A DNA stretch of 64,000 nt from Parcubacteria group bacterium (GCA_016180525.1 JACPBB010000002.1:48824-112823); one strand, 5' to 3'; numbered from the stretch's first letter, positions 28,605 through 31,853 are shown. Translations and numbers: made by a program. The notes: generated by a model from the sequence alone, not told the origin.

Positions 28605-31600
28605 ATGGAAGAAAGGCTAAAAAAAATTATAAAAAGTGAAGTTTTCATAACCAAAAAGGAGGCGACAATTGTTTCACAACAGGGCAGGAAATTGGATTGG
28701 ATTTTTGATTTTAGAAGAATATTACTTGTTCCGGAATATATAGATTTAATAGCTGAGATTTTTTGGGAAAAATATAAAGATAAATATCCCTTTCAAGTAT
28801 GCGGTCTTGAGACTGCCGCCATTCCTCTTGTGACCGCTATTGTTATGAAAAGCGTTCAAAAAGAAAAGCCTATCAATGGATTTTTTATTAGAAAATCAAG
28901 AAAAAAATACGGGCTTACGCGATTGGTAGAGGGAAGTATAAATAAAGAAAAAATTATTATAGTTGATGATCTTATAAGTTATGGAGACGCTGTTAAAAAA
29001 CAAATACAAATCCTTGATGAATTAGGGAAAAAAGTTTCTGAAGTGTTTGTCATCATGCATTTTAAACAATTGAAATATTATGATTTTCTGAAAAACCGCG
29101 AAATTATTTTGACTTCTCTTTTCCCACTTACGGATTTTGGACCACCGTTTCAAAAAATAGCCTCTGATAAAAAATATCTCGGCGACGCATTCATCAGAAA
29201 GTGGTATTTCAAAAGTGAAAATCCAAATTATTTTTATGTTATCCCTAAATCAGCTCCTGCTATAGACGGAGATAAAATTTATTTTGGAAGCGATAGCGGA
29301 TATTTTTGGGCGCTTAATCAAAATGACGGCTCTGTCTCATGGAAATACAAAGTTGGCTTAGGCTCAAGAGGAAAAAGTGTGTTTTCTTCTCCGGCGGTTT
29401 ATGACAATACTGTCTATTTCGGAGCATATGATGGAAACGTTTACGCGCTTGACACAAAAACCGGAAAAAGAAAGTGGGTATTTATGGAAGCTGACTGGGT
29501 CGGCTCATCTCCAGCACTTGCGCCGGACTTAGGACTTCTTTTTATAGGTCTTCAATTCGGTCTGTGGAATAAAAAAGGGGGTATTGCCGCGCTTGATTTG
29601 AAAACGGGAGAGAAAAAATGGGAACATCTTACTTCAGAATACACACCCTGCTCTCCCACATATTCAAAAGAAAAAAAAATAGTTGCTATCGGTAGCAATG
29701 ACTCCGCAGTATATTTATGTGACGCAAAAAATGGAAAACTTTTGTGGAAATTCCAAACAAAGGGAGAAATAAAATCTTCTTTGGTTTTTGATGAAAAAAG
29801 AAATACAGTAATTTTTGGTAATTTTGAAGGGAAATTATATGTCGTTGATATCAAAACGGGGCATGAAGTATTTTCATATCAAGCAGAATTTGGTATATAT
29901 TCAACTCCCGTTATATATAAAGATAATATATATTTTTCGTCTTTAGATAAGCACCTATACAGCATAAATCTTGACACACAAAAACTTAATTGGAAATTTC
30001 AAACTGGCGGAAGAATTCTCGCTTCGCCTATTATTATTAATGATAAATTATATATTGGCTCAAATGATGAAAGATTATATGAAATAAATCTCGACACAGG
30101 AGAAATGCTTGCGTTTTTCCAAACAACAGAGCGCATTACAAACAAAATCGCATACAACAAAGGAACAAAACAATTTTTTCTTTCAACGTTCGCAAACGAA
30201 ATATATTGTTTGAAGAGAATACAAAAAAATGATAAGAAATATGTTCAATTCAAACTACCCTCTTTGCCTACTGTGGAGGCATTCGATAAAAACGAAAAAG
30301 AATTTGCACTTGCGTTAAGCAGAAAAACGCTTGCATTATTTTTGCATGCAAAAAACAAAAACAACAAACTAGATCGTAATATACAAATACCTCAAAAACT
30401 TCTTAGCAAATCTTTTGTTGGTGTAAGTTTTTGGATGTATGGTTCTTTGCGAGGGTGCCAAATTGTTCGCGGCAAAAAAATATACGATGCAATAATAGAA
30501 GCAACAAAAAGAGCCGCGCAAGATATGAGATTTAAATCGCTTAACATAATTGATCTGGATGTCATTAGAATCCAAATATCTATAATTTCTAATAAGTGGG
30601 ATGAAATAGACAAAAAGAGAATAAAAAATTTAGAAATTAATCCTATGGCTGGTTATTTTTTAAGCAGCAAAGAAGGTATTGGTTGGTTTTTGCCTGAAGT
30701 TTTTAACATTGTTCCGTTTGCAAACATGGAACAACTAGTGTTCCAATTGGCAATCAAAAAGGCAAAAATTTCTCCAGAATTGCTTGCCGACAAGGAGACT
30801 ACAATATATTCTTTCAGCACCGATGATTTTATGGAGGGGAAAAACGGCAACATATTAGATCTAGAGGGCCCAATAGTAAAAACAGAAATAGAAACAACAG
30901 AGAAAAAAGTAGTTGGGGCGGCGAAGAGAGCCGCCGATTGGATGTTGCCGCTTATGGATAAAGACGGAGGGCTTGTCACAATACTAAACCCCTACGGAAA
31001 AATAATTAGTCATTATGATTGGGCAAGAACAATTTTCTCTGGGTGGGTCCTTGCAGAGTTCGGAAGAATGTTTAATCAAGAATCACATATACAAGCGGCA
31101 AGAAACAATTTTGAATATAATAAAAAAAATATTTTTGACGATTCTGTTCACATTAAAAATAAGCTTCTCGTTTTATCATATCTTGGACAGCAAGCGCTGT
31201 CATTAAGTTATTTGCCTGAGGCGCTATTGTGCGCTGATGCCATCGTCACACAATTGCAAAACGAGCCTTTTCACCCACTAACTTTCTCTCAAATAGGAAG
31301 TTTTTTGGGAACAATGGCTCTTCGTGGCAATAAAAAATATTTGAATTATGCCCTCCAATGCGCAACCGCGGTAAAAAACTCCTTCGATGAACGAGGGACG
31401 AACGGTATACCAAGAAGTATTGCCGAATATGCTGAACTTGTAAATACATTGAGCATTCTTTACGGGTGCACAGGAGAGAAAAAACATGCTGATGCTTCAA
31501 AAGAAATGGCTTTGTGGATTTTAAAAAATCAATTAGAAAGCGGCGCTTTTAAAAATACAGAGAGTTCTAATTTTTCATATACGCGAGGCACAAGCAAGGC

Positions 31601-31853
31601 AGTGGAAGTTCTTTCGTTATTTAATCCGTCATCTTTTCCGCAAGTGAAGCAGGAAAATTATAGAAATCAAGTATTGAGAGCTTTCAAATGGCTTCTTTCA
31701 ATGCAATATAACGAACTAAATTCATTTTTTATTGACTCTCAAGAAGTTAAAAAATACCTTGGAGGATTTAGGCATGATTATTTAAACACCGAAGCGTGGA
31801 TAGACTCGGCAGCGCATTTTATTTTAGCAATCACTAGATTTTATAAACCATGA
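28605..31853 (+). CDS. 1082-aa multidomain fusion: PRTase-like (PRPP motif) - PQQ-like beta-propeller - AMMECR1 - alpha/alpha-toroid (prenyltransferase/LanC-like) domain
   Basis: IIIVDDLISYGDAV PRPP-binding motif. Repeated YFGSxDGxxYALDxxTGxxxW-type PQQ propeller blades. GSLRGCQIV...DMRF...GWFLPEV AMMECR1 signatures. The C-terminal region is helical and repeat-rich. Confidence 0.7.
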   Translation: MEERLKKIIKSEVFITKKEATIVSQQGRKLDWIFDFRRILLVPEYIDLIAEIFWEKYKDKYPFQVCGLETAAIPLVTAIVMKSVQKEKPINGFFIRKSRKKYGLTRLVEGSINKEKIIIVDDLISYGDAVKKQIQILDELGKKVSEVFVIMHFKQLKYYDFLKNREIILTSLFPLTDFGPPFQKIASDKKYLGDAFIRKWYFKSENPNYFYVIPKSAPAIDGDKIYFGSDSGYFWALNQNDGSVSWKYKVGLGSRGKSVFSSPAVYDNTVYFGAYDGNVYALDTKTGKRKWVFMEADWVGSSPALAPDLGLLFIGLQFGLWNKKGGIAALDLKTGEKKWEHLTSEYTPCSPTYSKEKKIVAIGSNDSAVYLCDAKNGKLLWKFQTKGEIKSSLVFDEKRNTVIFGNFEGKLYVVDIKTGHEVFSYQAEFGIYSTPVIYKDNIYFSSLDKHLYSINLDTQKLNWKFQTGGRILASPIIINDKLYIGSNDERLYEINLDTGEMLAFFQTTERITNKIAYNKGTKQFFLSTFANEIYCLKRIQKNDKKYVQFKLPSLPTVEAFDKNEKEFALALSRKTLALFLHAKNKNNKLDRNIQIPQKLLSKSFVGVSFWMYGSLRGCQIVRGKKIYDAIIEATKRAAQDMRFKSLNIIDLDVIRIQISIISNKWDEIDKKRIKNLEINPMAGYFLSSKEGIGWFLPEVFNIVPFANMEQLVFQLAIKKAKISPELLADKETTIYSFSTDDFMEGKNGNILDLEGPIVKTEIETTEKKVVGAAKRAADWMLPLMDKDGGLVTILNPYGKIISHYDWARTIFSGWVLAEFGRMFNQESHIQAARNNFEYNKKNIFDDSVHIKNKLLVLSYLGQQALSLSYLPEALLCADAIVTQLQNEPFHPLTFSQIGSFLGTMALRGNKKYLNYALQCATAVKNSFDERGTNGIPRSIAEYAELVNTLSILYGCTGEKKHADASKEMALWILKNQLESGAFKNTESSNFSYTRGTSKAVEVLSLFNPSSFPQVKQENYRNQVLRAFKWLLSMQYNELNSFFIDSQEVKKYLGGFRHDYLNTEAWIDSAAHFILAITRFYKP

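Follow-up and report, generated by a model that had tools for sequence, protein, structure and literature searches.

Positions 28605-31853 (+) of the window, i.e. the whole 64,000-nucleotide stretch of Parcubacteria group bacterium DNA that was analysed (GCA_016180525.1, JACPBB010000002.1:48824-112823), hold a single uninterrupted open reading frame of 1082 residues plus stop, with an ATG start and no internal stop codon. The identical protein (P0001; NCBI 'MAG: AMMECR1 domain-containing protein [Parcubacteria group bacterium]') is encoded on three independently assembled contigs, SRR12113431, SRR12113430 and SRR12113424, and a frameshift or assembly chimera is therefore excluded. The gene lies in a co-directional operon at 24176-32596 that begins with a YcaO cyclodehydratase of the TOMM/SagD type (24176-25666, +; PF02624, E = 4.6e-48), which ends in PHPFP and scores 217.9 bits against TIGR03604, 1.3 bits under the 219.25 cut-off. 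This is followed by a SagB-family FMN peptide dehydrogenase (25669-26415, +; TIGR03605, 147.8 bits against a cut-off of 78.4), a class I SAM methyltransferase with weak similarity to ApyS and 2-ketoarginine methyltransferase (26458-27483, +) and a DegT/DnrJ/EryC1-family PLP aminotransferase (27480-28580, +; PF01041, E = 3.3e-92). Downstream, the start of an Asp/Asn beta-hydroxylase-family 2OG oxygenase (31850-32596, +; PF05118, E = 4.5e-39), which is AspH/LpxO/OlsC-like and scores best against OlsC and LpxO, overlaps the stop of the giant ORF by 4 bp. No E1, ThiF or RRE domain was found in any gene of the operon with the Pfam and NCBIfam models, although an E1-like partner could be encoded elsewhere in the genome.

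On the opposite strand lie two candidate substrates, a 263-residue protein (23227-24018, -) with an N-terminal membrane helix, the sequence ...AHADTPPPPPPPGCGGGSGGGCS and a C-terminal domain of unknown fold, and a 299-residue protein (22309-23208, -) with an N-terminal membrane helix, the sequence ...SSGDGADGGGDGGCDSGCADHDGG and a C-terminal domain. The motif of the former is shared with short precursors in related loci, while the N-terminal 70 residues of the latter match the 80-residue precursor of another locus, L016 (E = 2e-5; related loci are numbered L). The candidates at 22309-24018 contain GCGGGSGGGCS and GGCDSGC, albeit both proteins are unusually long and one of them lacks the x-A-D-x-P motif described below. 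Beyond them are a membrane-anchored C39-like (probably non-catalytic) plus TPR protein (20605-22251, -) and, at the low-GC end of the island, a short-chain dehydrogenase/reductase (SDR; 19814-20560, -). Homologues of the C39-like protein occur in 13 loci and the homologue in locus L031 passes PF13529, but there is no conserved Cys; an SDR recurs together with DegT in loci L044 and L045.

Domain architecture of the 1082-residue protein

The first-pass annotation proposed a fusion of a PRPP-binding PRTase-like domain, a PQQ propeller, AMMECR1 and an alpha-alpha toroid within a YcaO operon. The four-domain parse, the single-gene status and the membership of a YcaO/SagB operon all hold, and the protein is neither a single plain propeller nor the product of a frameshift. 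The N-terminal domain (28605-29174, +; aa 1-190) is an OPRT-like type I phosphoribosyltransferase (PRT) domain, matching TIGR00336 (pyrE) with E = 2.6e-22 and the OPRT structures 2wns (4e-11) and 5hkf (2e-10), although its 79.4 bits fall below the pyrE cut-off of 106.8 and it reaches only 14.6 bits against 26.3 for PF00156. It carries the Arg/Lys-rich flexible loop RKSRKKYG (28890-28913; aa 96-103) and the PRPP loop IIIVDDLISYGDAV (28953-28994; aa 117-130), the hydrophobic run and acidic pair being contained in KIIIVDDLISYGDA at aa 116-129. In 119 homologues both the RK.RK.YG...EG loop and the VDD..NSG loop are at least 90% conserved, but the PRPP loop of the window protein (VDDLISYG) departs from the family consensus (VDD.LNSG) at two of these conserved positions.

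The second domain (29190-30224, +; aa ~196-540, about 345 residues) is a PQQ/BamB-like beta-propeller, with matches to PF13570 (E = 1.5e-58; 199 bits against a cut-off of 133), PF13360 (E = 5.7e-33; 115 bits), PF01011 (49.6 bits) and 8-bladed propellers in the PDB. It is PQQ-like in sequence only, scoring far below the quinoprotein (TIGR03075, 86.5 bits against 480) and BamB (TIGR03300, 113 bits against 285) cut-offs; nothing indicates PQQ binding, and it is an internal domain that follows a cytoplasmic PRT domain and has no lipoprotein signal. In stand-alone homologues the protein ends at this point, at ...ANEIYCLKR.

The AMMECR1 domain (30285-30842, +; aa ~561-746) scores 45.4 bits against a PF01871 threshold of 25, and its AF2 model (pLDDT 94) superposes on PH0010 (1vaj; Foldseek E = 8.6e-11, TM 0.80), which has the same two-lobed fold. 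The motifs GSLRGCQIV (aa 613-621), DMRF (aa 640-643) and GWFLPEV (aa 693-699) are all present; the RGC and DxRF motifs of the family (PMC2034487) are thus found in the window protein, although the trailing Gly of RGChG is absent. The remainder (30897-31850, +; aa ~765-1082) forms an (alpha/alpha)6 toroid. This had been likened to prenyltransferase/LanC-like toroids, but it is closest to AGE-type sugar epimerases/isomerases, GH76/GH88/GH9 and class II terpene cyclases, and it has no conserved Cys, so it lacks a LanC-type zinc site. Identity in the structural alignments is only 8-15%, and the GH88 match is just under threshold (PF07470, 25.8 bits against 26.6, covering only 82 residues). K998, D1067 and H1071 are invariant in the family and about 15 further polar or aromatic residues are at least 90% conserved, the polar set also including R1056-H1057-D1058, R994 and E1001 along with several Trp and Tyr.

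Two mobile modules and their genomic neighbourhoods

The protein joins two modules, designated here PP (PRT plus propeller) and AT (AMMECR1 plus toroid). The fusion of AMMECR1 to a propeller and a toroid was first annotated as having no described precedent, which stands as far as the searchable literature and the curated HMM libraries go; however, AMMECR1 plus toroid is not a one-off fusion but a standing two-domain family, and PRT plus propeller is an even larger one. Only the joining of the two modules is rare: two cases were found, in opposite orders, the second being P0022, an AMMECR1-toroid-PRT-propeller protein whose N-half is 45% identical to a stand-alone AT lying 3.5 kb from an AspH-PP gene in locus L010.

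PP has more than 1,285 homologues, in which it is a C-terminal constant unit (the propeller is the C-terminus in 119 of 119 homologues) preceded by variable catalytic domains: AspH (about 200 aa), formyltransferase (about 300 aa), sulfotransferase or AT (602 aa). AspH is fused N-terminally to PP in most distant homologues. Among the 80 closest metagenome loci 28 have YcaO and 30 have SagB, mostly in the order YcaO-SagB-PP, and of the 25 loci with at least 4 kb on both sides, 17 carry an ATP-dependent activating enzyme (YcaO, PurD or PaaK-like) and 23 carry at least one system gene. In nine loci PP sits in an operon with a bona fide purD (TIGR00877, 446-481 bits against a cut-off of 288), whose substrate derives from PRPP. 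Of the associated YcaO proteins, 37 of 38 end in PHPFx.

AT has 394 cluster representatives, 171 of them at E<1e-30, including at least five AT-YcaO fusions and three GT2-AT fusions. In genome loci, mostly of CPR bacteria, the order is SagB-AT-YcaO or AT-YcaO, and AT is divergent-adjacent to PP in L014, L016 and L023 and in L047, L049 and L071. In 64 of 69 family members RGS replaces the RGC motif, i.e. Ser stands in place of the predicted catalytic Cys of AMMECR1 (PMC2034487).

Both modules recur next to small precursor-like proteins with a basic N-terminus and one membrane helix, a conserved x-A-D/E-x-P junction and a Gly/Asp/Ser/Cys-rich core. A Gly/Asp-rich ORF is found in 35 of 80 PP loci, and 24 of these are short, with a membrane helix and NADVP/HADAP/YADVP-type motifs. 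Their density is 6.2 per 100 kb within 5 kb of PP against 2.7 per 100 kb beyond, although part of the gene co-occurrence may reflect synteny among related CPR genomes; for example, ExoEndoPhos and UPF0102 genes also recur. Cores are rich in Cys/Ser where YcaO is present and almost pure Gly/Asp where it is absent.

Discussion

The data are best explained, with a probability of roughly 0.6, if the ORF encodes a cytoplasmic, precursor-directed tailoring hub of a previously undescribed TOMM/LAP-like peptide-modification pathway, as a 'Rosetta-stone' fusion of two independent modules that each work on the same kind of substrate. Comparative genomics strongly supports the proposal of the first-pass annotation that the protein is a scaffold or modification enzyme for the pathway product. 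The chemistry is inferred only; there are no biochemical data for any member of either family. YcaO and SagB are inferred to convert Cys/Ser of the core to azol(in)es and AspH to hydroxylate the Asp residues, while the AT half would act with YcaO, either taking the place of the missing E1-like 'C protein' or carrying out a coupled step in its strongly conserved polar toroid pocket. The PP half would dock the Asp/Gly-rich peptide on the propeller, with its OPRT-like domain using PRPP to make a phosphoribosyl (ribosylamine-type) adduct or intermediate, and the fusion of PP and AT, with translational coupling to AspH, would keep consecutive tailoring steps on one substrate-bound assembly. PP and AT each occur without the other and PP occurs without YcaO; their roles therefore cannot be strictly interdependent, and AT cannot be a processor of a PP product in every system. 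Furthermore, PRT folds can probably act as sensors rather than enzymes, as in B. subtilis PurR, and the precursor N-termini look like export or anchor signals, which raises a topology problem for cytoplasmic modification.

An extended version of this hypothesis is possible but doubtful: PRT plus propeller could define a new class of ribosomal peptide (or membrane-protein) modification in which a phosphoribosyl/ribosylamine-derived group is installed on Asp/Gly-rich, membrane-anchored precursors and could then be elaborated by PurD, PaaK-like ligases, formyl-, sulfo- and amino-transferases, with AMMECR1 plus toroid as a new, E1-independent partner of azoline-forming YcaO enzymes. This would be the first PRPP-dependent peptide modification and would give the first biochemical handle on the function of the AMMECR1 fold.

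It remains possible, although unlikely, that the protein is a pure adaptor or scaffold that only recruits precursors to YcaO, SagB, AspH and the other tailoring enzymes, its PRT-like and AMMECR1 domains being catalytically dead ligand- or peptide-binding modules, in parallel with the E1-like C protein of TOMM synthetases, which descends from a nucleotide-binding enzyme. PP is the constant unit to which varied catalytic domains are fused, in the way that RRE domains are in other RiPP enzymes, AT is fused to YcaO as in C-D fusions, 64 of 69 AT members have Ser in place of the predicted catalytic Cys, the associated C39-like domain has also lost its Cys and the PRPP loop of the window protein is atypical. 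On the other hand, the OPRT catalytic and PRPP loops are conserved in at least 90% of sequences at 38-66% overall identity, PP shares operons with PurD, which needs a PRPP-derived substrate, and the invariant Lys/Asp/His set of the toroid is typical of an active site.

Less likely still is a role in a glycoconjugate or small-molecule (nucleotide/sugar) pathway that does not touch peptides, in which the PRT would make a ribonucleotide-like compound, the AGE/GH-like toroid would isomerise a sugar, DegT, SDR, the methyltransferase and the LpxO/OlsC-like hydroxylase would tailor that compound or an envelope lipid, and the Gly/Asp-rich proteins would be unrelated surface proteins. The structural affinities of the toroid, the GT2-AT fusions, a Stf0-like sulfotransferase-PP fusion, the GT4 genes in L010, the DegT and SDR genes of the window and of L044 and L045, the OlsC/LpxO-like scores and the PurD association all hint in this direction. 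However, the sugar-type genes are sporadic (DegT in 2 of 80 loci and SDR in 5 of 80), whereas precursor-like ORFs (35 of 80) and YcaO/SagB (about 30 of 80) are the dominant partners, YcaO and SagB of this type act on peptides, core composition tracks the presence of YcaO, and AT-YcaO fusions exist. That the N-terminus is an ordinary housekeeping pyrE product fused to unrelated domains, or the ORF a mis-assembly of separate genes, is effectively refuted: the best sequence matches of aa 22-177 are OPRTs and locus L045 has a dihydroorotate-dehydrogenase-like gene 1 kb upstream, but the domain scores below the pyrE cut-off, its acceptor-side residues appear to differ from those of E. coli PyrE, it is always fused to the propeller in more than 1,000 homologues, the identical ORF occurs in three assemblies and the same two modules are fused independently in the reverse order.

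The operon shares with the TOMM/LAP azole synthetases (McbBCD, SagBCD and fused C-D cyclodehydratases such as PatD/TruD) a SagD-type YcaO with a proline-rich C-terminus, a SagB FMN dehydrogenase, candidate precursors with Gly/Cys/Ser-rich cores reminiscent of microcin B17 and a third component that is encoded in the same operon and sometimes fused to YcaO. Here, however, that component is PRT plus propeller and/or AMMECR1 plus toroid, the 'leaders' are membrane helices with an x-A-D-x-P motif, the cores are Asp-rich, and many sister clusters lack YcaO altogether and carry PurD and PaaK-like ligases instead. In contrast to the AmmeMemoRadiSam system, the AMMECR1 domain scores below the cut-off for system protein A (TIGR04335, 50.6 bits against 99), is always followed by an (alpha/alpha)6 toroid and has no Memo or radical-SAM domain among the genes at 19.8-33.3 kb, although radical-SAM genes do flank AT in loci L011 and L012. 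The PRT core, the PRPP-binding acidic loop and the flexible catalytic loop are those of PyrE and other type I PRTases, but the domain is embedded in peptide-modification clusters rather than pyrimidine operons. The propeller resembles PQQ-like/BamB-like 8-bladed propellers, including the C-terminal propeller of ACSF4/AASDH, in repeat type and size, while the toroid has its own K/D/H and RHD set relative to AGE-superfamily epimerases/isomerases, GH88/GH105/GH76 six-hairpin enzymes, LanC and class II terpene cyclases.

The combination of the PRT domain with a genuine PurD in sister clusters, and the N-terminal formyltransferase domain of other PP proteins, recall the PurF-PurD-PurN steps of de novo purine synthesis (PRPP to phosphoribosylamine to GAR to FGAR). 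Nevertheless, the PRT is OPRT-like rather than PurF-like and has no glutaminase domain, the formyltransferase is closer to Fmt than to PurN, no other pur genes lie nearby and the window itself has no PurD.

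Sequence integrity and predicted domains

The open reading frame at 28605-31853 (+) comprises 1082 codons, with an ATG start and no internal stop. The identical protein is present in the public collections as a singleton cluster (designated P0001; NCBI name 'MAG: AMMECR1 domain-containing protein [Parcubacteria group bacterium]') and is encoded with the same neighbours on three independently assembled contigs, therefore a frameshift or chimera is excluded. The motifs cited by the first-pass annotation in support of a four-domain fusion are all present. Residues 1-190 form an OPRT-like type I PRT domain (TIGR00336, E 2.6e-22), with matches to the human and M. 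tuberculosis OPRT structures (E 4e-11 and 2e-10, respectively), although the score falls below the pyrE cut-off (79 against 106.8 bits). Residues 196-540 form a PQQ/BamB-like propeller (PF13570, 199 bits against 133; PF13360, E 6e-33) that best resembles 8-bladed propellers in the PDB but is far below the BamB and quinoprotein cut-offs; identity as a genuine pyrE, BamB or quinoprotein was therefore rejected on curated cut-offs.

The remainder of the protein consists of an AMMECR1 domain (aa 561-746; PF01871, 45.4 bits against 25) and, from fold searches, an (alpha/alpha)6 toroid (aa 765-1082). An AlphaFold2 model of aa 544-1082, built with 69 homologues, is very confident (pLDDT 94.3, pTM 0.92), and Foldseek superposes its first part on the AMMECR1 structures 1vaj, 1zq7 and 1wsc (E 1e-10, TM 0.80). 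Membership of the AmmeMemoRadiSam system was nonetheless rejected. The suggestion in the first-pass annotation that the C-terminal helical region is LanC-like was also rejected, as LanC is not among the top hits and the family has no conserved Cys in the toroid.

Two modules fused in opposite orders

The four domains behave as two modules. The N-terminal half (PRT+propeller, hereafter PP) has more than 1,285 homologues at 38-66% identity, and in all 119 of the best homologues PRT+propeller is the C-terminal end of the protein. What varies is the N-terminal addition: none, giving a protein of about 600 aa; an AspH-type hydroxylase of about 200 aa, which is the majority form and is found in Bryobacteraceae and other soil MAGs; a formyltransferase of about 300 aa, which is closer to Fmt than to PurN; a Stf0-like sulfotransferase; or, in the homologue P0022, an AMMECR1+toroid of 600 aa. 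The window protein is the only one with an extension after the propeller.

A word-indexed search with the C-terminal half (AMMECR1+toroid, hereafter AT) found only one relative, but an exhaustive HMMER search found 394 cluster representatives, 171 of them at E<1e-30. Most are stand-alone proteins of 610-660 aa, at least five are AT-YcaO fusions (P0122, P0126, P0127, P0147 and P0159) and three are GT2 glycosyltransferase-AT fusions. Most stand-alone AT proteins have an extra small beta-rich domain at the N-terminus (for example aa ~25-103 of P0121; AF2 pLDDT above 90), which is missing from the window protein, from P0022 and from some AT-YcaO fusions. An RRE-like role for this roughly 100-aa extension was considered but not retained, although the sub-domain could not be searched alone.

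P0022 carries the same two modules in the reverse order, and its AT half is 45% identical to a stand-alone AT encoded 3.5 kb from an AspH-PP gene in a related locus, L010. A search with full-length P0022 for further reverse-order fusions returned only 5 proteins. Two independent fusions in opposite orders, together with repeated adjacency, are classical evidence of a functional link.

Genomic context

The operon at 24176-32596 (+) encodes, in order, a SagD-type YcaO (TIGR03604, 217.9 against 219.25 bits) with the C-terminus ...PHPFP, a SagB-family dehydrogenase (147.8 against 78.4 bits), a methyltransferase, a DegT aminotransferase, the giant protein and an AspH/LpxO/OlsC-like oxygenase that overlaps the giant ORF by 4 bp. 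No E1-like, ThiF-like or RRE domain was found in the operon. Promoter and terminator scans were not informative within the operon. Divergently transcribed are two proteins with Gly/Cys/Asp-rich segments (22309-23208 (-) and 23227-24018 (-)), a membrane-anchored C39-like/TPR protein (20605-22251 (-)) and an SDR. The C39-like domain, which has homologues in 13 loci, lacks a conserved catalytic Cys and its conserved His is Gln in the window protein, while a PDB sequence search found nothing; it is probably a non-catalytic peptide-binding domain rather than a leader peptidase. The C-terminal ~110 aa of the C39-like/TPR protein are 31% identical (E 1e-10) to a secreted 143-aa protein encoded on the other side of the operon (32846-33277 (+)), and a perfect TTGACA-16-TATAAT promoter match lies just upstream of that gene, at 32763-32790.

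In 11 genome loci with AT relatives the source organisms are Saccharibacteria, Parcubacteria, Peribacteria and Wolfebacteria, plus Myxococcales, Polyangiaceae and Bdellovibrionales. There the gene order is SagB-AT-YcaO or AT-YcaO, or AT is divergent-adjacent to PP. Of the 80 closest PP loci from metagenomes, 28 carry YcaO and 30 carry SagB, predominantly as operons in the order YcaO-SagB-PP, and 37 of 38 associated YcaOs end in PHPFx. A membrane-anchored rhodanese occurs in 11 of these 80 loci, a DsbA-like thioredoxin in 5, a helical membrane protein in 13-16, a C39-like/TPR protein in 11 and AT in 4. Of the 25 loci with at least 4 kb on each side of PP, 23 carry at least one of these system genes and 17 carry an ATP-dependent activating enzyme.

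Candidate precursor proteins

Small ORFs with a common three-part organisation recur in these loci and were found in 35 of the 80 PP loci. They have a basic N-terminus plus one hydrophobic helix, a spacer ending in a conserved [HNYQ]-A-[DE]-x-[PAT] motif (such as NADVP, HADAP or YADVP) and a core of 20-76 residues made almost only of Gly, Asp, Ser, Cys and Glu. Their density is 6.2 per 100 kb within 5 kb of PP and 2.7 per 100 kb beyond. Furthermore, core composition tracks the enzymes: where YcaO/SagB are present the cores carry many Cys or Ser (for example C9 in locus L060, and S17 C4 in L078), and where they are absent the cores are nearly pure Gly/Asp (G9 D12 in L028; D38 in L069). No NCBIfam or Pfam model recognises these precursors, and an NCBIfam scan of six short examples gave no family.

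The two candidates in the window are long, at 299 aa (22309-23208 (-)) and 263 aa (23227-24018 (-)). Each has a membrane helix and a Gly/Cys/Asp core, followed by a 190-230-aa domain of unknown fold that starts 'WNG..F'. The 263-aa protein has ...AHADTPPPPPPPGCGGGSGGGCS..., while the N-terminus of the 299-aa protein aligns with the 80-aa precursor of locus L016. In locus L045 (17326-18807) both types are fused into one 493-aa protein. Elsewhere, in L006 (8974-9807 (-)) and L059 (1982-2824 (-)), a Gly/Cys-rich core is followed directly by a Hint/intein-like domain (CF...VVHN; TIGR01443, 24.2 bits), which suggests autoproteolytic release or C-terminal transfer of the modified core. Membrane-anchored rhodanese and DsbA-like thioredoxin genes recur beside PP and AT (L006 12529-13724; L014 13089-14197; L023 4366-4842), and precursors in loci without YcaO often end in a two-Cys motif (DCxxxxxC), hinting at extracytoplasmic sulfur or disulfide chemistry.

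Conservation of putative catalytic sites

The OPRT flexible loop (RK.RK.YG...EG) and the PRPP loop (VDD.LNSG) are at least 90% conserved in the PP family, although the window's loop reads VDDLISYG. In nine loci (L026-L031 and L037-L039, e.g. L027 9968-14327) holding PP proteins 54-62% identical to the window's N-terminal half, among its closer relatives, PP is in an operon with a bona fide purD, the gene for phosphoribosylamine-glycine ligase (TIGR00877, 446-481 bits against a 288 cut-off). Those loci also carry two PaaK/F390-synthetase-like adenylating enzymes, a methyltransferase-like gene, the C39-like/TPR protein and an Asp/Gly-only precursor, while YcaO is absent and no other pur genes are nearby. 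The substrate of PurD is phosphoribosylamine, which is made from PRPP; this argues that the PRT domain is an active PRPP-using enzyme making a ribosylamine-type product.

In the AMMECR1 domain, 64 of 69 AT members have RG-Ser where canonical AMMECR1 has the predicted catalytic RG-Cys (PMC2034487), whereas the window protein has Cys. The toroid has invariant K998, D1067 and H1071, and about 15 further polar or aromatic residues are conserved in at least 90% of members, all but one of which are kept in the window protein. This looks like a real binding or active site.

Discussion

The folds, the fusion network (AT-YcaO, AT-PP in both orders, AspH-PP, formyltransferase-PP, sulfotransferase-PP and GT2-AT), the operon structures and the compositional coupling of the precursor family to YcaO suggest that the giant protein is a precursor-directed tailoring hub of this pathway (probability about 0.6). 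In the inferred model, YcaO+SagB make azoles from the Cys/Ser of the core and AspH hydroxylates Asp. PP would be the constant precursor-docking unit, in which the propeller binds the peptide and the PRT domain performs PRPP-dependent chemistry on it or for it. AT would work with YcaO in place of the absent E1-like partner, or catalyse a coupled step in its toroid pocket. The fusion, plus translational coupling to AspH, would assemble these steps on one substrate-bound complex. Each specific chemical assignment is tentative and considerably less secure than the general statement.

A purely non-catalytic adaptor is an unlikely but possible alternative. A sugar or small-molecule pathway unrelated to the peptides is suggested by the sugar-enzyme-like toroid and by the DegT, SDR, GT and sulfotransferase company, but these partners are sporadic and this reading is doubtful. 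That the protein is a housekeeping pyrE or an artefact is very improbable; a dihydroorotate-dehydrogenase-family gene (8074-8973) does lie 1 kb upstream of the OPRT-like PP gene in L045, but this is a single case and may be coincidence.

The operon appears to work like a TOMM/LAP system, with YcaO and SagB components of that type but without the 'C protein', and is regarded here as a TOMM-like RiPP system with novel accessory modules. By curated thresholds or defining sites, the giant protein is not a member of OPRT, BamB, the quinoproteins, AmmeMemoRadiSam, LanC or GH88. Curated libraries (Pfam 2025, NCBIfam 2026) have no model for PP, for AT as a unit or for the precursors, and full-text searches found no paper linking AMMECR1, or a PRT/propeller protein, with YcaO or RiPPs, and nothing relevant on YcaO and RiPPs in CPR bacteria. 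There is a real, albeit lesser, chance that PP-centred clusters, many of which lack YcaO, constitute a new class of peptide modification.

YcaO enzymes that make azolines are thought to need an E1-like or ThiF-like partner. Here, a large, mostly CPR-borne set of SagD-type YcaO/SagB operons has none and carries instead one or both of two uncharacterised modules, one of which is repeatedly fused to YcaO itself, making the question of what else can partner YcaO directly testable. AMMECR1 is a conserved fold in archaea and eukaryotes, including a human disease gene, whose activity is unknown and for which published proposals concern RNA base modification (PMC2034487, PMC4075521); a bacterial branch with a defined genetic context and defined candidate substrates offers an experimental entry point. 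Meanwhile, the link between a PRPP-type transferase with intact catalytic loops and PurD, formyltransferase domains and Asp/Gly-rich peptides suggests chemistry not yet seen in RiPPs.

The system is common in ultra-small CPR bacteria, whose surface and secondary metabolism are almost unexplored. In the window, the whole cluster (19814-32596) has lower GC (0.367) than its flanks (0.427 and 0.410) and ends 1.3 kb from a tRNA-Arg(gcg) gene (33898-33969), which is compatible with a horizontally acquired island. A second low-GC stretch (0.32-0.34) lies at 54000-58000 and holds ORFs at 54039-55136 (-) and 55441-56796 (-).
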